Below, in pieces: positions 1,745 to 31,713 of a DNA stretch of 64,000 nt. Where the stretch lies: IMG/VR virus record IMGVR_UViG_3300028275_000007; one strand, 5' to 3'. A program made the translations under genes and the position numbers. Every line of letters begins with the position of its first letter. The first letter of the stretch is position 1. This stretch comes from a virus. Its lineage: Duplodnaviria > Caudoviricetes. Under the pieces are notes generated by a model. It saw only the letters and a program-made list of their open reading frames with translations. It made no database searches and had not been told where the DNA came from.

Positions 1745-3637
1745 TTAGTCGGCTTTCTTCTCTGTGAAGGTAGCATCAACTACATCATCTTCTGCAGACT
1801 GAGGTTGAGCTTGAGCTTGGTCCTTAGCCTGACGTTTCTGTAGCAATACTGACATCGACGGTACAATTTTTTCCAGTGCAGATTTAATATCTTCTACGCT
1901 GTCGCCTTTTGTAGCGGTTTCAATATCAGCAAGTGCTTTTTCAATATCTGAAATCTCTGTGTCTGTCAATTCACTGCGGAACTCTTCAAGATCTTTCTTA
2001 ACTTCGTGTACTTGTGCTTCGGCTGAGTTACGAGTATCGATGAGTTCACGTGCTTTCTTATCTGCTTCTGCATTAAGCTCTGCATCTTTGATCATTTGTT
2101 GAATCTCAGATTCACTTAAACCAGAATTAGATTTAATTGTAATTTTGTTTTCTTTACCAGTGTTCTTATCTTTGGCACTGATGTGCATAATGCCGTTGGC
2201 ATCGATGTCAAAGGTAACTTCAATTTGTGGTTGTCCTCTACGTGCAGGAGCAATGCCGTCAAGTTTGAATTCACCTAGCAATTTATTATATTGTACTAGT
2301 TCACGTTCACCTTGGAAAACTTTGATATCTACTGCAGGCTGATTATCTTCAGCTGTAGAAAATACTTGTTGTCCCTTAGTTGGAATTGTGGTGTTCTTTT
2401 GAATAATCTTGGTAAACACACCGCCCATTGTTTCAATACCAAGTGACAGAGGAGTAACGTCTAGCAATAGAACGTCTTTACGATCGCCACCAAGAACAGC
2501 GCCTTGAATAGCAGCACCGACAGCAACTGCTTCGTCTGGGTTAACATCTTTACGTGGTGCTTTGCCAAATAACTTTTCTACTTCTTCTTGAACCTTAGGC
2601 ATACGTGTCTGACCACCGACTAAGATAACTTCCTCAATATCTGAGGCACTTACACCTGCATCTTGCATAGCAGTACGGCACGGTGCTAATGAACGATTAA
2701 TCAAATCTTCTACAAGTGCTTCTAGTTTAGCACGAGTAATTTTAATGTTCATATGCTTAGGACCATTAGCATCTGCTGTAATGTAAGGCAAGTTAACATC
2801 TGTGCTAGCAGAGCTAGACAGTTCAATCTTTGCTTTTTCAGCAGATTCTTTTAGACGTTGTAGAGCAAGCATATCTTTCTTTAGATCAACACCTTGTTCT
2901 TTCTTAAATTCATCAACCAAGTAATCCATAATACGTTGGTCAAAGTCTTCACCACCCAAGAAGGTGTCGCCGTTGGTGGACAACACTTCAATTTGTTTGT
3001 CACCGTCAACATCTGCAATTTCGATAATACTTACGTCAAATGTACCACCACCTAGGTCGTAGACTGCGATCTTGCGATCTTTCTTGTCTTGTTTGTCTAC
3101 ACCATATGCTAGTGCAGCCGCTGTTGGTTCGTTAATGATACGCAGTACTTCTAAACCTGCAATAGCACCAGCATCTTTTGTTGCCTGACGCTGACTGTCA
3201 TTGAAATAAGCAGGAACTGTGATAACTGCTTGTGTAACAGGCTCGCCTAAATAATCTTCGGCAGTTTTCTTCATCTTACGAAGTACTTCTGCTGAAATTT
3301 GTGGAGGTGCTAATTCTTTGCCTTGTGCCTTAACCCACGCATCACCGTTTTTGGCTTCGTAGATTTCGTATGGCATTAGGTCAAGATCTTTTTGTACAGC
3401 CTGTTCTTTGAACTTACGTCCAATTAAACGCTTGGCTGCATAAACTGTATTTTTTGGGTTTGTAACTGCTTGACGCTTTGCTGAAGCGCCAACAATAATT
3501 TCGTCGGGTGTATAGGCAACAATACTAGGAGTAGTGCGAGCACCTTCTGAATTTTCAATAACTTTGGAAGTTCCGTTCTCGATAACAGCCACGCAAGAAT
3601 TGGTGGTGCCGAGGTCAATACCGATGATCTTAGACAT
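1745..3637 (-). CDS. dnaK: Chaperone DnaK (Hsp70)
   Basis: [40 protein letters not shown] motifs; 630 aa. Confidence 0.98.
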
Positions 3638-13245: not shown

Positions 13246-13270
13246 AAAAAGCCCACTAAAGAGTGGGCTT
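13246..13270 (-). terminator. Intrinsic terminator after pqqA
   Basis: AAGCCCACT-AAAG-AGTGGGCTT. Confidence 0.75.
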
Positions 13271-13278
13271 GTATTAAA

Positions 13279-13350
13279 TTAACGGTTCATTACATACATT
13301 GTAACTTCAAAACCGTAGCGCATTTCAACTGCTTCTGGTTTAGTCCACAT
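13279..13350 (-). CDS. pqqA: PQQ precursor peptide PqqA (23 aa); not in ORF track
   Basis: MWTKPEAVEMRYGFEVTMYVMNR with ExxxY and AAGGAG RBS. Confidence 0.9.
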   Translation of the reverse strand: MWTKPEAVEMRYGFEVTMYVMNR

Positions 13351-13451
13351 AATGTTTCTCCTTTATAAAAACATACTGCATTAGTATGTATCGTTAGTAT
13401 AAGACAAAAACACCACAAAAACCATACGTAAAATCATTAAAATGATATTGC

Positions 13452-13458
13452 ATAAATA
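13452..13458 (+). promoter_or_regulatory. T4-like late promoter (ATAAATA)
   Basis: The TAAATA motif recurs just upstream of many structural genes (e.g. 14723, 15418, 18091, 18778, 33830, 44393, 47998). Confidence 0.6.
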
Positions 13459-13461
13459 CGT

Positions 13462-13560
13462 GTGTGGGGAGTAGTCCGCTCTTTTTAAGAGTTCTATACA
13501 TCGTCATTTCGGTTTTACAACCCGGTGCATAGAGAGAATGGGTCTCGGACAAGACCATAA
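13462..13560 (+). ncRNA. yybP-ykoY (Mn2+-sensing) riboswitch
   Basis: GGGGAGTAG...ATCGTCATTTCGG...CCGG...CAAGACC landmarks in the right order, directly 5' of a TerC gene. Confidence 0.8.
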
Positions 13561-13634
13561 TATCGAGTATATTATGGATCTAAACATCTTCTCTTATTGT
13601 ATTTCCATAACATACTCTTTTAAGGAGTTGTAAA

Positions 13635-14324
13635 ATGGAATTATTTACATTACAAGCCCTATGGGCATTTCTCGCTATCATTTTGATAGACATTGTATTA
13701 GCCGGTGATAACGCTCTTGTTATTGGGATGGCGGCTAACAAATTACCAGACCACTTACGCAAGAAGGCAATCTTCTGGGGTACTTTTGGTGCTATTGCTA
13801 TACGTTTTGTATCAGTGGCGGCATTAACCTACTTGCTGATGATCCCAGGCTTACGTGCTATTGGTGCTGCCGCACTGATATGGATTGGTTGGAAGTTGGT
13901 GTTCAATCACGACGAACACAACATCGAAGCCAAGGACACCTTCTGGGGTGCAATTGGTACTATCGTAGTCGCTGATGCTGTTATGGGCATAGATAATGCC
14001 TTAGGCATTGCCGCAGCCGCTAATGGTAGTTTTGTTTTAGTCGCCGCTGGATTGTTGATCAGTGTGCCAATTATCCTGTTTGGTGCTACTATGGTCAGCA
14101 AGATACTACAACGTTGGCCCGACACAGTATTTGCAGGTTCGTTTGTATTGTTTGCTGTGGCAATGCTAATGCTAATGAAAGAACCATTGATGGCTAGCTG
14201 GTGGGCAGGGTTAGAACCTATTGTGGCTAAACCTTTACCTTGGTTGGCTGCATTTGTTATCACTGCTGTTCAGTATAACAAGGCTAGATTACATTTGCAC
14301 AAAAAGTATTTGTTCAAATCATAA
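13635..14324 (+). CDS. terC: TerC/Alx family membrane protein
   Basis: IDIVLAGDNALVIGMA, IVVADAVMGIDNALGIAAAA, GLLISVPII. Confidence 0.9.
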   Translation: MELFTLQALWAFLAIILIDIVLAGDNALVIGMAANKLPDHLRKKAIFWGTFGAIAIRFVSVAALTYLLMIPGLRAIGAAALIWIGWKLVFNHDEHNIEAKDTFWGAIGTIVVADAVMGIDNALGIAAAANGSFVLVAAGLLISVPIILFGATMVSKILQRWPDTVFAGSFVLFAVAMLMLMKEPLMASWWAGLEPIVAKPLPWLAAFVITAVQYNKARLHLHKKYLFKS

Positions 14325-14349
14325 AAAAGCCCCGGAAGGGGCTTTTTTA
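14323..14349. terminator. Bidirectional intrinsic terminator
   Basis: AAAAAAGCCCC-GGAA-GGGGCTTTTTT between convergent units. Confidence 0.85.
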
Positions 14350-14362
14350 TTACAGTAAAATT

Positions 14363-14479
14363 TTAACTGTTTAAAACTTTGGCAACCGAGTTCATTACTG
14401 CGGCAATACGTCCAATGTCACGAAGCTGTTCTACAGTGTAGCCTTCCTTCTTGAGTGTGTCGTAGTGTGCTTTTACGCA
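14363..14479 (-). pseudogene. Orphaned original 3' end of ahpD (38 codons plus TAA)
   Basis: Translates CVKAHYDTLKKEGYTVEQLRDIGRIAAVMNSVAKVLNS*, 35/38 identical to the C-terminus of the 15424-15930 ORF. Confidence 0.9.
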
Positions 14480-14725: not shown

Positions 14726-15412
14726 TTATTCCTTGTTCTTACAGTTATCGCCGTGCCAACGATTAAACATTCCGGAACTAACCGTTTTGCTACAATGCGG
14801 GCAGACTTTTTTGATTTGGCTTGGATGTGTTCCGTTAGCCAGTTGATTCTTTACAGATTTGCCGCCCAAAAAGTTATGGGTTCCTTCCGCTACTCGTTTC
14901 TCATTAGTTTGGCGAGAAACTGCTCCGCCCAAAAACGGATGTGTTCCGTTCTTGACTTTTTCTAACTCTTTTTTACGGGCCCAATCTTTATCCAAAAATG
15001 TATGGTTGCCTTCGGCTATTCGCTTTAAGTTTCTTTTACTTGCCTTTTCACTATCTTGCCAGTGATGATTGCCTGCTTCGACTAATCTGTCTTGTGCTTG
15101 CTTTTGTATCTTGCCACCAAGAAAGTTATGGGTTCCATTCTCAACTGCTTTGAGTGCTCCTAATCTTGATAGATTAGACTTCTCTTCTGGTGTAATATCT
15201 AGTGCTCCGGAAATCAACAAACAAGCATACCAGTCTCCTTGACTGTAGTGTATGTCGTAGTGTTCCTGGATAGTGACTGCTTTAAGATTTAGAGGATTAT
15301 TATTAGAGTGATCCCCATCGATGTGATGGATTTCAAAAGATCGTCCATCAGCATCAACGGGGATTTCACCGTAGTGCTGTTTGTATATTTTTCTATAAGA
15401 TCGGTCTCTCAT
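14726..15412 (-). CDS. HNH homing endonuclease with NGTHxFLGG repeats and C-terminal Zn finger
   Basis: EIHHIDGDHSNNNPLNL; about six GTH/GNH repeats; CPHC...WHGDNCK; TAAATA then ATG at 15412. Confidence 0.88.
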   Translation of the reverse strand: MRDRSYRKIYKQHYGEIPVDADGRSFEIHHIDGDHSNNNPLNLKAVTIQEHYDIHYSQGDWYACLLISGALDITPEEKSNLSRLGALKAVENGTHNFLGGKIQKQAQDRLVEAGNHHWQDSEKASKRNLKRIAEGNHTFLDKDWARKKELEKVKNGTHPFLGGAVSRQTNEKRVAEGTHNFLGGKSVKNQLANGTHPSQIKKVCPHCSKTVSSGMFNRWHGDNCKNKE

Positions 15413-15423
15413 AGAAATATTTA

Positions 15424-15930
15424 TCAACTATTCAGCACCTTTGCTACACTATTCATTACTGCCGCTATTCTGCCGATGTCTCTCAACTGCTCAACAGTAT
15501 AACCCATAGTTTTCAAACCATCGTAATGGGCTTTTACGCAAAACTCGCATTTGCCCACAATACTAGCAGCCAAACTAAATGCTTCAAAGTTTGCCTTGGT
15601 AGTTCCACCGTGGCTAGCAATCGCATTCATACGTAACTGAGCTGGCAATCCCTTTAGCTGTTCATCATCTGCCATTTCAACATATGGATACCATACATTG
15701 TTCTGTGCCATAATGCTTGCGGCTGTCATTGCTGCTTCGCCGTGTACTGGAGCATCTGCTAATAGAATACTTAGAACCTTGCCGTTGCCTGTTGCGGCTA
15801 ATGCAGCTACAGCACAACCTATTGCAATGTCCGGATCTAATGTACTGCGAAGTAGAACAGCATCTAGGTTTAGTTTTGTATCTTTAGCGTACTCTGGAAG
15901 TGCGCCTTTAATTGTTTCGTTGAAGTTCAT
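15424..15930 (-). CDS. ahpD: Alkylhydroperoxidase AhpD
   Basis: LPEYAKDTKLNL...MAQNNVWY...SIVGKCEFCVKAH (CxxC); downstream of ahpC. Confidence 0.92.
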   Translation of the reverse strand: MNFNETIKGALPEYAKDTKLNLDAVLLRSTLDPDIAIGCAVAALAATGNGKVLSILLADAPVHGEAAMTAASIMAQNNVWYPYVEMADDEQLKGLPAQLRMNAIASHGGTTKANFEAFSLAASIVGKCEFCVKAHYDGLKTMGYTVEQLRDIGRIAAVMNSVAKVLNS

Positions 15931-26793: not shown

Positions 26794-27219
26794 TTACAAT
26801 CTAGATTTTGACCAAAGCAACTTGGTCTCGATGTTCTTTAATTCGTCTACACCAACTACACTTTTATATTCCAAATTAAGTACATATTTTTTGTCTACTA
26901 CCAAAATATATGAAGCGTCATCTTTATCTGGGATTATGGATTTATGTATCTCACATTCGGTATCAATAAAGCGACTTGTTAATTTAATAGTGTACAGCAT
27001 TCCAAGAACAATAGCAAGATCGTCAAGTCGTAGATCCAGAATTAAATGCCACGGATCGGGCCATTCTGTTGGATTTTGAGGGTCTAAATACGGACTGACA
27101 AATGGAGCTTGGCCCCAAAGTCTAGCAACATCCTCTAATGGGTTATCGCTAGTCTCTAGGTTGTCTCTAAATTCTTTCCAGGCTGCAAGTCTTTCCGTTC
27201 CATATTGATCAAACACCAT
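26794..27219 (-). CDS. Hypothetical late protein
   Basis: 141-aa ORF coupled to the upstream structural gene. Confidence 0.7.
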   Translation of the reverse strand: MVFDQYGTERLAAWKEFRDNLETSDNPLEDVARLWGQAPFVSPYLDPQNPTEWPDPWHLILDLRLDDLAIVLGMLYTIKLTSRFIDTECEIHKSIIPDKDDASYILVVDKKYVLNLEYKSVVGVDELKNIETKLLWSKSRL

Positions 27220-28810
27220 AGGTTACATCAAAAGAGATGGAACCTGTTTTGCCTGAGGCTAGAGGGTTCTTATATGATAATACGATAGTATCTACAACTG
27301 CTGCTGTAGAGTCATCACCGGTAGTGTTACTAGTTTTAGTAACGTTGAATTCAAAATTAGTCATAAGATTTCCTCCTTCGGATAGAACAAAATTCGGAGA
27401 GTAGGTAAAATTATCTGTAATAGAAATATCTGAACCGTTAGTTCCTGGAGATAGGTCGTCACCAATTACAAACGTAATATTTCCATAACGTGTATGTTCG
27501 CCTAACTTCAACGAATAGTTGATTGATGTAAATTTATTCAATGCAGAAAATACTGCCAACGGTCTAAAACTATCTGAAAGATATATTTGAGAATAATTTC
27601 TATCAACAAATGTAGTTAAAGAACCATTGTAAACTTCAGTATATGCTGCCGAAGTTCCAACAGACACAATTCCTGCGTCTTGTTGTCGGTCACTAGTTGA
27701 ATCTATAACAATGTTGTTTGCCGATTCACCAAAGTAGACCATTGGTCCAATTGGATCGGAAGAATTGTTAATTCCGTTACCGACATTTTTAAAAAAACAA
27801 CGATTTATAATAGTACCATGACCGTATGTAGATCTAAATGCGTTATTGTAAATTTCTTCAAAGTTGCTGTCATATATTTTCCACTTGGTGCCTTGTGTCG
27901 ATATACCGTCAACGTATATGGCTGTATCATTAACAAAGAAATTACAGTTATCAAAATCAATTTCTGTATCAAACACATCTGTTTGAATACATTTTATACT
28001 AATGCTATTGCTGTTAAAAGAACAATCTATAAATTTTACATTAGTTGTTCTAACACCAATAAGATCATTTTCCCAGAATAACGCAGACGGTTCTGCAATT
28101 AATGATTCTAGAGAATCGCCTAATACGTACTCTCCTAGGAATGTGATATTTTGAAAGACTGAATCGGCAATGCCCGATAATGTAAATTGCCCTGTTGTTC
28201 GTTTAATTGTAAGTTGAGAAATATTAATATTCTTAGGTCTATTAGTACTATTAAAATCTACAAGTTCCAGTCCAGTTGAGGTAACAAATCGAATGTTGTG
28301 AGCGTCGATATTTAGAACTGTGCCTAATTGTGTTTCACCTTTAAGAATTGCTTCGCTTGGAATTGTTAGATCACTTGCGAAATAATATTCTCCATTTGGT
28401 ATTAAAAGATATTTCTTAAGGGTTGGATCTACATTTTGGAATAGCTGCTGAAATGCAGTTTCAAATGCTTCAACACAATCGGTTACTCCGTCACCTACTG
28501 CACCAAAATCTGTTACAGAAACGTATTCGTCTAGTTTAGATTGTAAACTTCTCGGAACGCTTAATGTTATTGCAGCATTATTAGATGCAAAATGATAGCT
28601 CGATGCTAGCTCTAATATGTTATCGTGTTCTGTAAGGATCTTAGTGTTGCCTACGTAAGGAGCACCTTCTGCAACACTACCGTTACCAATGAATAACTCT
28701 TGCGAGTCAACAGCCCAGGCAAACTCCGCAGAACTTAGTTGCGGAATGCCGCTGTTTGAATTTTTTTGTCCTCTGCGGACTTGTATTTTAGAGATCTGTA
28801 CGACAGCCAT
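27209..28810 (-). CDS. Tail/baseplate-associated protein with pectate-lyase-like beta-helix
   Basis: MAVVQISKIQVRRG..., SVTDFGAVGDGVTDC; N/S/T-rich repeats; TAAATA upstream. Confidence 0.75.
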   Translation of the reverse strand: MAVVQISKIQVRRGQKNSNSGIPQLSSAEFAWAVDSQELFIGNGSVAEGAPYVGNTKILTEHDNILELASSYHFASNNAAITLSVPRSLQSKLDEYVSVTDFGAVGDGVTDCVEAFETAFQQLFQNVDPTLKKYLLIPNGEYYFASDLTIPSEAILKGETQLGTVLNIDAHNIRFVTSTGLELVDFNSTNRPKNINISQLTIKRTTGQFTLSGIADSVFQNITFLGEYVLGDSLESLIAEPSALFWENDLIGVRTTNVKFIDCSFNSNSISIKCIQTDVFDTEIDFDNCNFFVNDTAIYVDGISTQGTKWKIYDSNFEEIYNNAFRSTYGHGTIINRCFFKNVGNGINNSSDPIGPMVYFGESANNIVIDSTSDRQQDAGIVSVGTSAAYTEVYNGSLTTFVDRNYSQIYLSDSFRPLAVFSALNKFTSINYSLKLGEHTRYGNITFVIGDDLSPGTNGSDISITDNFTYSPNFVLSEGGNLMTNFEFNVTKTSNTTGDDSTAAVVDTIVLSYKNPLASGKTGSISFDVTYGV

Positions 28811-29939: not shown

Positions 29940-30214
29940 TATACACCACCCGATGGAGAATTTAAACTAGATAACTGTTTTTGTAGATCTACTAATTCTT
30001 GTTGCTTTTGTTTGATAGCATCTTGAATTTGTTTTCTTTGATCAGCTAGTTGTTTTACTTGTTGTGCTTGAAGTTTAGCCTGTGCCTGAGGATCCTGTGC
30101 AGGAGTCATTGGCTGTGCGCCAGGCTGTCCAGCAGGCTGTTGTCCAAGCATAGGAGCATCGAGTTCAGCTAACCTGGACATTTCACGTTCACTAATGATG
30201 TTAAAAAGTTTCAT
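29939..30214 (-). CDS. Q-rich coiled-coil late protein
   Basis: MKLFNIISE; low-complexity QP/QA. Confidence 0.7.
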   Translation of the reverse strand: MKLFNIISEREMSRLAELDAPMLGQQPAGQPGAQPMTPAQDPQAQAKLQAQQVKQLADQRKQIQDAIKQKQQELVDLQKQLSSLNSPSGGV

Positions 30215-31713
30215 TAACCTGCTAATACTCTTAATAGACTGTTGCTACGATCAATGCTTTCACGCTGTTCACGTCCAGCTGCTTCTAATCCGCCAGCTGC
30301 TGCATCGCTTGCGCCAAACTCGTCGCCACCTGCTAGAGCATCTAGTCCACTTTCGTCTCCGCCTGTATTCATCATATCTGGCTCAGCAGGACCCATTTCG
30401 TCTCCAGCTCCCATATCTGCACCTGGCTCACCGCCTAGCATATCTGTTGGCTGCTCTCCACTGGCCAATGAACGAACACTGGTACTTAATGTATCGCGTG
30501 TGGATTTTAAGTTTTCCAATGCCTGCTGAATAGCCGGAGCACACTGGCTAATAAATGCCTTAGCCTGTTCTTGTCCCATTTCATCGCGGATAGAATCGCC
30601 TAGCTGTAGAAGTGTGTCGTTCTCCATGCCAGATAGTTCTTCGATCCAACGGCTAACTCTGTCGACCATAGTTTTTGCTGTAACGATAGCACTGGCCTGT
30701 TGTACTTCGCCTTCGTTTAGTTTAGTCATATCTTCTCCTGATTCTGTTGACTCGTTCTTTTCTTTGTTGTGTTGCTTCCAAGCGGTAGCATACGCAATGC
30801 TTTTTTCTTTATCGGTTAGTTTGCCATCTTTGGCATAACCTTTTTTAATATGTTTTACCATACGTTCTGCTTTGGCTCCTGGAGGTGCTTTTTCTGATAC
30901 AGTACCTTCACCAAAGTGTCTTTTATATGAATCCTGTCCGTCATCGTAGTGTTTTGCCGACGGTGATCCGGGATTGTATGGATTCTTTTTCTTTCCTTGA
31001 GAAGCATCTTTATATCCAGCATTGTGAGCTGCTTTAGTTTCCTCGTCAGCATCTTCTGCTTGATACTCTTCGTCGTAGCCAAAACTACCGTAGTCTTCAT
31101 CTGAACCGTGTCCTGCTGATGCTAGAGCATAAGCATCGTCTGTATCTCCACCCTCGTCTTCGTCACCGCCTTGAGCAAGTGCTTCAAATTCTGCTTGTAG
31201 GTCTTCAACATACGGTTCAATTCGTGGAACTTCGCCACCGTCTTGGTCACTGTATGCGTACCATACTTCTTCTGCTGCGCCTTCAAAGTCACCTTGTCTT
31301 AATAGTTCGACAATTTTTTTAGCGTCTAGATCTCCGTAAGCGCCAATTTCGTTGGCATTTTCGTCAAACCTTTTTAGAAGTTGCATAACTTCATCTTCTA
31401 AAGACCCAAATCCTTCATCTGTGCTAACTTCAGCAACGCTTGGATCAACAATAAACTCTGCACGTTCTGCAATTTCAGCATTGATAGCGTCTAACATCCA
31501 CTGAGCTTGTGCTACTGCTTCATTTTCAATATTTTCATTAAATCCGCTGCCTGAACGAACTTGACTTAATTGTGTACGTAGCTTATTACGAGCATCTTCC
31601 AACTTTGGTACATCAAAACTAGCAAAATCTAGCTTTGTACCGAATAATTTTTCCATCGATTCATTGATCTTTTTAGATGATCTATTTGATTTAAAAAGGT
31701 CTGTAGTTTTCAT
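30214..31713 (-). CDS. Acidic modular late protein, probable prohead core/scaffold-like
   Basis: D/E-rich, many hydrophobic-x-E sites, basic inserted modules; TAAATA upstream. Confidence 0.6.
   Translation of the reverse strand: MKTTDLFKSNRSSKKINESMEKLFGTKLDFASFDVPKLEDARNKLRTQLSQVRSGSGFNENIENEAVAQAQWMLDAINAEIAERAEFIVDPSVAEVSTDEGFGSLEDEVMQLLKRFDENANEIGAYGDLDAKKIVELLRQGDFEGAAEEVWYAYSDQDGGEVPRIEPYVEDLQAEFEALAQGGDEDEGGDTDDAYALASAGHGSDEDYGSFGYDEEYQAEDADEETKAAHNAGYKDASQGKKKNPYNPGSPSAKHYDDGQDSYKRHFGEGTVSEKAPPGAKAERMVKHIKKGYAKDGKLTDKEKSIAYATAWKQHNKEKNESTESGEDMTKLNEGEVQQASAIVTAKTMVDRVSRWIEELSGMENDTLLQLGDSIRDEMGQEQAKAFISQCAPAIQQALENLKSTRDTLSTSVRSLASGEQPTDMLGGEPGADMGAGDEMGPAEPDMMNTGGDESGLDALAGGDEFGASDAAAGGLEAAGREQRESIDRSNSLLRVLAG

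Follow-up and report, generated by a model that had tools for sequence, protein, structure and literature searches.

A candidate manganese riboswitch of the yybP-ykoY class in the terC leader of a T4-like freshwater phage

A yybP-ykoY-type aptamer precedes terC

The virus record IMGVR_UViG_3300028275_000007 (Duplodnaviria; Caudoviricetes) was analysed over a stretch of 64,000 nucleotides (nt), called the window throughout. Within it, a non-coding leader of 183 nt on the plus strand (13452-13634) precedes the gene terC. Judged from sequence comparisons and folding, this leader probably harbors a genuine riboswitch of the yybP-ykoY (Mn2+) class that is part of a phage cassette and would act by an ON mechanism. 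The gene itself (13635-14324, plus strand) encodes a YjbE-type TerC family membrane protein of 229 amino acids, which matched Pfam PF03741 (E 8e-40, 136.9 bits, cut-off 27.8), NCBIfam TIGR03717 'R_switched_YjbE' (189.4 bits, cut-off 134.8) and phrog_7180. An earlier note, made from the sequence alone, had proposed a phage-encoded Mn2+ riboswitch controlling TerC from a late promoter, and the landmarks on which it relied are all in place: ATAAATA (13452-13458), GGGGAGTAG (13466-13474), CGTCA (13502-13506), CCCGG (13521-13525), CAAGACC (13550-13556) and the terC ATG (13635).

In riboswitches of the yybP-ykoY class, the stacks P1/P2 and P3/P4 form a four-way junction in which L1 and L3 are the metal pockets, and the outer switch helix is nucleated by two G:C pairs (PMC11087558). 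One adenine of L3 is essential, as the substitution A41U in Lactococcus lactis abolishes Mn2+ binding (PMC11087558). The window aptamer extends from 13463 to 13559 on the plus strand, as delimited by a local match of the Rfam family RF00080, a covariance model of our own (R1, see below), covariation and RNAalifold. It consists of the switch helix UGUGG/CCAUA (13463-67/13555-59), L1 (13468-73 and 13551-54), inner P1 (13474-77/13547-50), P2 (13479-83/13487-91), P3 (13494-502/13524-32), L3 with the sequence GUCAUUUC (13503-10), P3.1 (13511-14/13519-22) and P4 (13534-37/13543-46); every arm of the four-way junction is present. The L1 consensus, with GGGGAGUAG in the 5' strand and A/G-AGACC in the 3' strand, is found at 13466-13474 and 13551-13556, and the same L1 letters occur in the leaders of E. 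coli mntP, Paenibacillus and Polynucleobacter. The GUCAA-type L3 consensus is likewise present, as CGUCA with the closing CGG. Position A13506, the A of GUCA, is probably the counterpart of L. lactis A41. By these features, the window aptamer is of the canonical yybP-ykoY form.

A perfect complementarity of 9 nt was also noticed between the P3.1 loop region (13513-13521, UUUUACAAC) and the spacer between the Shine-Dalgarno (SD) sequence and the AUG (13627-13635, GUUGUAAAA). The pairing appeared in one unconstrained fold and is not kept in the related loci L045, L051 and L052. It is probably due to chance, but could provide an added contact between aptamer and expression platform in the window phage.

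Covariation among related phage leaders

Searches with the window TerC protein as query detected 80 viral contigs with 60-97% identity. Upstream of terC, the arrangement GGGGAGTA...AGACC was found in 54 of them, representing 42 distinct sequences, and these were combined with the window leader in an alignment of 43 distinct phage leaders (A1). Four short stretches, GGGGAGUA, CGUCA, CGG and AGAC, show no change in any of the 43, and the helices between them vary. For quantification, the canonical architecture was written onto A1 and the pairs were then counted, with slid partners and shuffled sequences as controls. In register, 90% of the cells are paired, compared to 29-41% when the partners are slid; double-sided changes amount to 155 versus 49 +/- 6 in the shuffles, and compensatory change was detected at 21 of the 32 pairs. 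Inner P1, P2 and P3 are each paired in 97% of the cells and P3.1 in 87%, with double-sided changes at 18 of the 23 pairs of these four helices. RNAalifold, applied without guidance, returned the same helices.

The outer switch helix is more limited. Its two G:C pairs are invariant, and further pairs are found in about half of the leaders. Columns 6-8 of A1 are paired in no more than roughly half of the leaders, which counts against the proposed switch; this point is taken up again below together with the transcription start.

P4 is fully paired in the seven A1 sequences that possess it. The remaining 36 of the 43 leaders, designated class C, are without P4 (A1 columns 86-99; e.g. L001:2895-2988 and L002:2888-2989). 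They carry a conserved purine-rich linker, GACAAAG or AACGAAG, in its place, and GAGACC instead of AAGACC. The four-way junction of the class is thereby absent from these relatives, which show a three-way junction, and class C may represent a minimal natural form of the aptamer. A class C leader preceded by CTAAATA is also contained in L082 (CAZUUI010000291.1), a contig of 2.7 kb assigned to a 'Chitinophagaceae' metagenome-assembled genome (MAG). It encodes a TerC protein 85% identical to that of the window and scored 99.6 bits with R1; most likely it is a phage fragment binned into a bacterial MAG.

Recognition by covariance models

As a check, the earlier note had proposed a search with the Rfam yybP-ykoY (Manganese) model, RF00080. 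At the curated threshold of 45 bits the window element was missed; a permissive local search yielded a match at 13454-13595 with 20.9 bits and E 6e-4. None of 20 related phage loci reached the gathering threshold either, and one relative's record (G004) scored 23.1 bits. Taken by themselves, these scores weigh against membership in the class. They are not decisive, however, because a validated member fails as well: with the model of Rfam release 15, the E. coli mntP riboswitch (L162:2462-2576, E. coli K-12) obtains 41.6 bits. Bacterial leaders gave similar values, 26-33 bits for Polynucleobacter terC, 34.8 for Paenibacillus with its textbook terminator and 30.5 for Brevibacillus. Matches to the model were obtained in nine well-known control genomes, and its own cut-off was exceeded in two of the nine. 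The release 15 model comprises 177 positions, and the outer helices are unmodelled in its printed consensus. Pipelines relying on this threshold will overlook true members, E. coli mntP included. The terC motif (RF03067) and all other Rfam families produced nothing relevant between 13350 and 13700 at E up to 10.

For the reciprocal search, R1 was built from related phage leaders only. In the 64-kb window it gave a single match, at 13458-13564, with 69.6 bits and E 5e-15. Applied to bacteria, it detected Polynucleobacter terC leaders with 62-82 bits, leaders of Rhodanobacter and Limnohabitans with 38 bits, those of Paenibacillus and Brevibacillus with 35.5 bits, and E. coli mntP with 30.2 bits (E 7e-5 in 117 kb). 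These bacterial matches coincide with the sites marked by RF00080. The four-way junction, the L1 and L3 sequences, the covariation in 43 leaders and the detection of bacterial members by a phage-derived model all agree with the assignment made in the earlier note, and we regard it as very likely that the window element is a true yybP-ykoY homologue under selection.

Expression platform and a possible ON switch

Three mutually exclusive helices are predicted from the 3' strand of the switch helix onward. The anti-switch hairpin H1 (13555-13577, plus strand) forms by pairing of CCAUAAUAU (segment a, 13555-63) with AUAUUAUGG (13569-77), which contains a pseudo-start AUG at 13574-76. H1 competes with the switch helix for CCAUA, and the 3' strand of this helix is accordingly shared by aptamer and platform. 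In H2 (13566-13616, plus strand), segment b (13566-78) pairs with segment c (13604-16). In constrained folds, H2 appears once the aptamer retains the a-strand, and the b:c pairing is also visible in L045, L051, L052, L177, L185 and L182. H3 (13603-13640, plus strand; UUCCAU...ACUCU at 13603-18 with GGAGU...AUGGAA at 13624-40) sequesters the SD sequence AAGGAG (13622-27) and the terC start codon AUG (13635). It belongs to the minimum free energy fold both for the complete leader and for the platform with a free a-strand. The two alternative states of the window leader are close in energy, with -49.0 kcal/mol for H1 plus H3, in which SD and AUG are paired, and -47.9 kcal/mol for the combination of aptamer, switch helix and H2.

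The competition for the switch strand is conserved beyond the window. In 57 distinct leaders the CC-AU... strand following AGA pairs in register with ...AUGG, with a mean helix length of 5.8 bp compared to at most 1.0 bp with slid partners. This anti-start hairpin covaries at pairs 5, 8 and 9, for example as CCAUAA/UUAUGG, CCAUUUUAA/UUAAAAUGG and CUGUAAU/AUUAUGG. In the majority of leaders, which have short platforms, the AUGG partner is the terC start itself and the SD sequence lies in the hairpin loop. In the window and in L045, L051, L052, L177, L185 and L182/L189 it is the pseudo-start AUG (13574 in the window), 60 nt upstream of terC.

From this pseudo-start, a possible upstream open reading frame (uORF) of 19 codons extends on the plus strand (13574-13633) to a UAA at 13631-33, which ends one base before the terC AUG. 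The frame is open for 17-42 codons in all eight leaders of this relay type, and the UAA-A-AUG junction recurs in L177 and L185. Since other frames of the relay leaders are open for 9-33 codons too, the uORF statistics are weak and the short reading frame is at best suggestive.

No U-tract follows H1 or H3, and none was found between aptamer and gene in the window leader. Control is therefore probably exerted on translation, as in E. coli mntP. An intrinsic terminator in the leader was considered and rejected for this reason; two terminator-like hits inside the aptamer are parts of P1 and P4.

The following mechanism would be compatible with these structures. Mn2+ would dock L1 on L3 and hold the outer switch helix UGUGG/CCAUA closed. 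With the CCAUA strand held, the competing hairpin with ...AUAUUAUGG could not form. In most relatives the partner is the terC start codon, and metal binding would free the start directly. In the window and about seven relatives, it would instead free the pseudo-start 60 nt upstream, from where two routes to terC can be envisaged. Either the freed segment b captures segment c, which otherwise masks SD and AUG of terC, or the uORF is translated through c, ending one base before the terC AUG. By either route terC translation would be turned on at high Mn2+. An ON switch is the expected direction for a metal exporter.

Fold models support the direction of the effect. Opening of the ribosome-binding site was calculated to cost 6.4-9.7 kcal/mol with the a-strand free and 2.7-7.9 kcal/mol with the a-strand held, and is 2-4 kcal/mol cheaper in the latter state. 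Two results temper this picture. At equilibrium, the mean probability of SD and AUG being unpaired rises only from 0.44 to 0.52 when the a-strand is held, a small change that goes in the expected direction in 40 of 51 leaders, and in the relay-type leaders no such shift in accessibility was seen. On balance, we judge it fairly probable that the element acts as an Mn2+-responsive translational ON switch. Control of TerC, as the earlier note had assumed, is supported by the covarying hairpin between the 3' strand of the aptamer and a start-codon region, and by the assignment of the protein to TIGR03717 'R_switched_YjbE'. Riboswitches of this class are associated with genes for membrane proteins of Mn homeostasis (TerC/Alx/YkoY/YjbE, MntP, YybP), to which both TerC types of the phage cassettes belong.

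A functional leader descended from yybP-ykoY might also respond to another signal, such as a different divalent metal or, following what is reported for E. coli alx, alkaline pH or the speed of transcription. Ligand specificity cannot be read from a sequence, and the loss of P4 in most relatives, leaving a three-way junction with a purine-rich linker, could change the docking geometry. L3 of the window, GUCAUUUC, deviates from the commoner form GUCAACAC, and the alx riboswitch is stated to answer another cue too (PMC9603457). Nevertheless, L1 and the CGUCA core of L3, which make up the metal pockets (PMC11087558), are invariant in 43 of 43 leaders, the regulated genes belong to two TerC subfamilies classically tied to yybP-ykoY, and the window retains P4 and all four helices. 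A signal other than Mn2+ is, in our estimate, distinctly improbable, and a response to Mn2+ remains the preferred reading.

A TAAATA motif in the position of a promoter

The leader starts with ATAAATA (13452-13458, plus strand; core TAAATA 13453-13458), a motif resembling T4-type late promoters, 7 nt before GGGG. Each of the 75 distinct phage-type leaders, pooled from three independent scans, has TAAATA at a distance of 4-8 nt before GGGG, with 5 nt as the commonest spacing. Nine leaders without TAAATA are GC-rich and not of the phage type. Bacterial homologues have instead a TATAGAAT-type -10 box 14-16 nt before GGGG, and a scan of the window leader revealed no sigma-70 site that would account for it. 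The motif is invariant and its flanks vary across the leaders, which points to a protein-binding site rather than to a helix.

The distribution of TAAATA in the window also suggests a promoter function. Only 43 copies are present compared to 75 +/- 8 expected. Of these, 24 touch the 12% of the sequence that is non-coding, and 23 of the 24 point toward the downstream gene. Virion genes (27209-28810 and 30214-31713) are among the genes following such copies. A gp55-type late sigma factor is encoded in two related records carrying the riboswitch, G002 and G003 (phrog_12791, E 4e-83 and 2.5e-80). Furthermore, TATAAAT has served as the query for T4-like late promoters in related methylophages (PMC9004378). 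The claim of a late promoter in the earlier note thus has indirect support, from the occurrence of TAAATA in 75 of 75 leaders, its orientation toward genes and the presence of gp55 in relatives.

Late transcription in T4 starts 6 nt after the motif. If this rule holds, the window transcript would start at G13464 and those of most relatives at the first or second G of GGGG. The partial pairing of columns 6-8 in A1 would be explained if these bases lie outside the RNA.

Several observations argue for caution. With a T4-like start, only 2-4 bp would remain for the switch helix. The window motif, cATAAATA, matches TATAAATA, the -10 element of gp55-dependent T4-type late promoters that lack a -35 element, in 7 of 8 positions, and most relatives have CTAAATA or ATAAATA. 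TAAATA also precedes the ribonucleotide reductase gene, and for this reason the motif is perhaps not strictly late. A search of the 64-kb window, itself a fragment of the genome, detected no gene for gp55, and an RNA-library contig of one relative reaches 820 nt upstream of terC. The motif might accordingly serve early, middle or general phage transcription, mark a site of processing or belong to the RNA itself, and terC would then be reached by read-through from elsewhere. Read-through from neighboring genes is unlikely because terC is the sole plus-strand gene amid a run of minus-strand genes. Together with the invariance of the motif between variable flanks, its depletion in coding DNA, its orientation toward genes including virion genes, the sigma factor in the lineage and the query used for methylophages, this makes a non-late function rather unlikely, and we consider it reasonably likely that TAAATA is a late promoter.

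RNA-library contigs are compatible with transcription of leader and terC. A contig from a riverine metatranscriptome matches the window exactly from 13495 to 13682, and contigs joining class C leaders to terC were detected in three riverine metatranscriptomes; these are assembled contigs that provide no 5' ends and no strand information and may include carried-over DNA. A gap at 13382-13475 in the RNA-library contigs was given no weight.

The terC cassette and its genomic setting

Directly after the terC stop codon, sequence reading revealed a hairpin resembling an intrinsic terminator (14324-14348, plus strand), consisting of an A-run, GCCCC-GGAA-GGGGC and a U-run. A consensus terminator scanner did not list it, probably since an A/U extension of the stem uses up the T-run. 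A terminator-like element of the form AAAAAGCCCC....GGGGCUUUUU follows terC in most related phages and is kept while the genes flanking the cassette change. Late-promoter-type motif, aptamer, expression platform, YjbE-type terC and terminator look like a self-contained cassette.

The cassette apparently behaves as an insertion/deletion unit, because in one riverine RNA library a contig with about 91% identity on its pqqA side fuses position 13353 to 14394 and represents a cassette-free locus in a relative. The pqqA-like reading frame on this side is stand-alone, with 23 codons (MWTKPEAVEMRYGFEVTMYVMNR; 13290-13361, minus strand), divergent from terC and equipped with its own terminator (13249-13270, minus strand). 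Its DNA is 87% identical to segments of the Methylophilales phages MEP401 and Melnitz, both of which share this segment. The placement of pqqA beside a metal-handling gene such as terC may be meaningful. On the other side, a gene for an HNH endonuclease (14726-15427) adjoins the cassette.

The carrier is, judged by its genes and relatives, a T4-like freshwater myophage. Among the products encoded in the window are a ribonucleotide reductase of class I, several virion proteins, a permuted transfer-messenger RNA and tRNAs. One virion protein is 50% identical to that of the T4-like cyanophage S-RIM32 and had 181 matches, mostly in cyanomyophages. The sequencing runs with DNA containing the stretch were riverine metagenomes in every case.

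Distribution among phages

When IMG/VR was scanned with a generic aptamer pattern ignoring terC, 66 contigs were retrieved, 64 of them with the TAAATA motif. A YjbE-type terC is present in 54 and a 313-amino-acid Alx-type TerC protein (TIGR03718) in about ten. The latter constitute a second type of cassette, in which TAAATA and the aptamer precede a gene for Alx-type TerC (TIGR03718 'R_switched_Alx', 391 bits), as in L214:1895-2932. It was identified at L214, L231, L254, L255, L262, L266, L267, L228 and L242. In L228 and L242, another short reading frame comes next after the aptamer, and that of TerC begins about 150 nt (L242) or much farther (L228) downstream.

The aptamer has also been lost. 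In L028, L030 and L032, with terC at 3001, TATAAATA lies about 100 nt before the gene and is directly followed by a remnant of the aptamer 3' part (...UAUAGACAAAACUGUGAUACCAUAAC...). The 5' half is gone, the usual SD sequence and start codon are kept, and expression of terC in these loci is presumably constitutive. No aptamer was detected at 22 viral terC loci. Four cultured phages with TerC were inspected, Otagovirus PPSC2 and phiPsa374, Acinetobacter vB_AciJM_313 and Rhizobium RHph_I1_18; they have no room for an aptamer and no R1 match, and among them no isolate phage with the aptamer was found.

Probable domestication of a host-type leader

Among bacteria, Polynucleobacter has the TerC proteins nearest to that of the window (62-65% identity), and the nearest counterparts of the cassette are provided by terC leaders and genes in Polynucleobacter-like Burkholderiales. 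The Polynucleobacter leaders agree with phage leaders of class B in P1 (GCC/GGC), L3 (CGUCAAUACG), P4 (GGGGAAUGGGUYCUU) and GGCRAGACC. They differ in having the TATAGAAT -10 box 14-16 nt upstream, other platforms and a chromosomal location of the genes. The phage appears to have swapped the sigma-70 promoter for TAAATA, set so near the aptamer that the transcript should start at or just before GGGG.

The near identity of the Polynucleobacter leaders to class B raises the possibility that the element is a relic of a host leader, brought along with terC and without regulatory function in the phage. The loss of the aptamer in some phages, as in the three remnants, the 22 viral loci and the four cultured phages, would fit such passive carriage. 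However, the aptamer persists in no fewer than 75 distinct phage leaders, all of its helices show compensatory changes, and the promoter has been replaced and repositioned. At least two rebuilt platform designs exist, both pairing the 3' strand of the switch helix with a start region and covarying, and the same arrangement has been built on a second TerC subfamily. Passive carriage appears very improbable in view of these findings. Domestication, favored in the earlier note, is supported by the promoter swap, the rebuilt platforms and the conservation in many phages.

Most likely, these phages read the metal status of their hosts and adjust an auxiliary membrane protein to it. At least 75 distinct leaders from river and lake viromes keep the element behind a phage-type motif, on two TerC subfamilies. 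More speculatively, the freshwater T4-like lineage might run a metal-sensing program of its own. It would have captured a host Mn2+ riboswitch and placed it at the very 5' terminus of a late transcript, its switch helix cut down to 2-4 bp and P4 lost in most members. Linked to two TerC subfamilies, either by a hairpin directly masking the start or by a uORF/relay, the riboswitch would then dose a metal exporter or metalation factor by the Mn2+ of the cell. We put this forward tentatively. If it is true, the phages might thereby maintain the function of metalloenzymes in periplasm or membrane, in connection with which the adjoining stand-alone pqqA may be mentioned, and the form without P4 would constitute a previously undescribed, minimal natural version of the yybP-ykoY aptamer. 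Natural minimal variants of a well-studied aptamer would be on offer, 5'-terminal, with a 2-4 bp switch helix and without P4, and the start-codon-masking platform is simple enough for use in biophysics and synthetic biology.

Comparison with known riboswitches

Full-text literature searches revealed no report of a yybP-ykoY element or another metal-sensing riboswitch in a phage. The rarity of riboswitches in phages, stated in the earlier note, is echoed in the paper on methylophage Melnitz, which calls them rare, gives only examples of the glutamine class and does not mention manganese or TerC (PMC9004378). These glutamine (glnA RNA) riboswitches of cyanophages, pelagiphages and Melnitz are the nearest precedent, as they are also borne by T4-like aquatic myophages and regulate a phage gene (PMC9004378). 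They differ in class and ligand. The Melnitz host lacks the glutamine element (PMC9004378), but for the Mn element there are clear homologues of the host type.

The elements of L. lactis and B. subtilis share with the window the four-way junction, the L1 and L3 pockets and the use of the switch-helix 3' strand by both aptamer and platform (PMC11087558). They operate by terminator and antiterminator (PMC11087558), whereas the phage leaders lack a U-tract terminator ahead of the gene and pair the shared strand with a start-codon region. A further parallel is E. coli mntP, described as a translational Mn2+ ON switch (PMC9603457, PMC11647493). Its alignment with the phage model runs from end to end through the switch helix, GGGGAGUAG, inner P1 (GCC/GGC), P2, P3/L3, P3.1 and GGCGAGACCAUAU; the P4 of mntP is handled as an insertion. 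As is predicted for the window leader, mntP is regulated at the level of translation and not by an intrinsic terminator, and its gene likewise specifies a membrane protein of the Mn2+ efflux type. It differs in its sigma-70 promoter, in a 5' leader plus platform that is long, with about 130 nt up to the start codon, and in the regulated gene, which is mntP and not terC. Compared to mntP, the window has a shorter P4, GUCAUUUC as L3, a late-promoter-type motif 7 nt upstream and a relay/uORF platform. New here are the phage context, the late-type promoter motif at the 5' edge, the start-masking platforms and, in relatives, the three-way form without P4.

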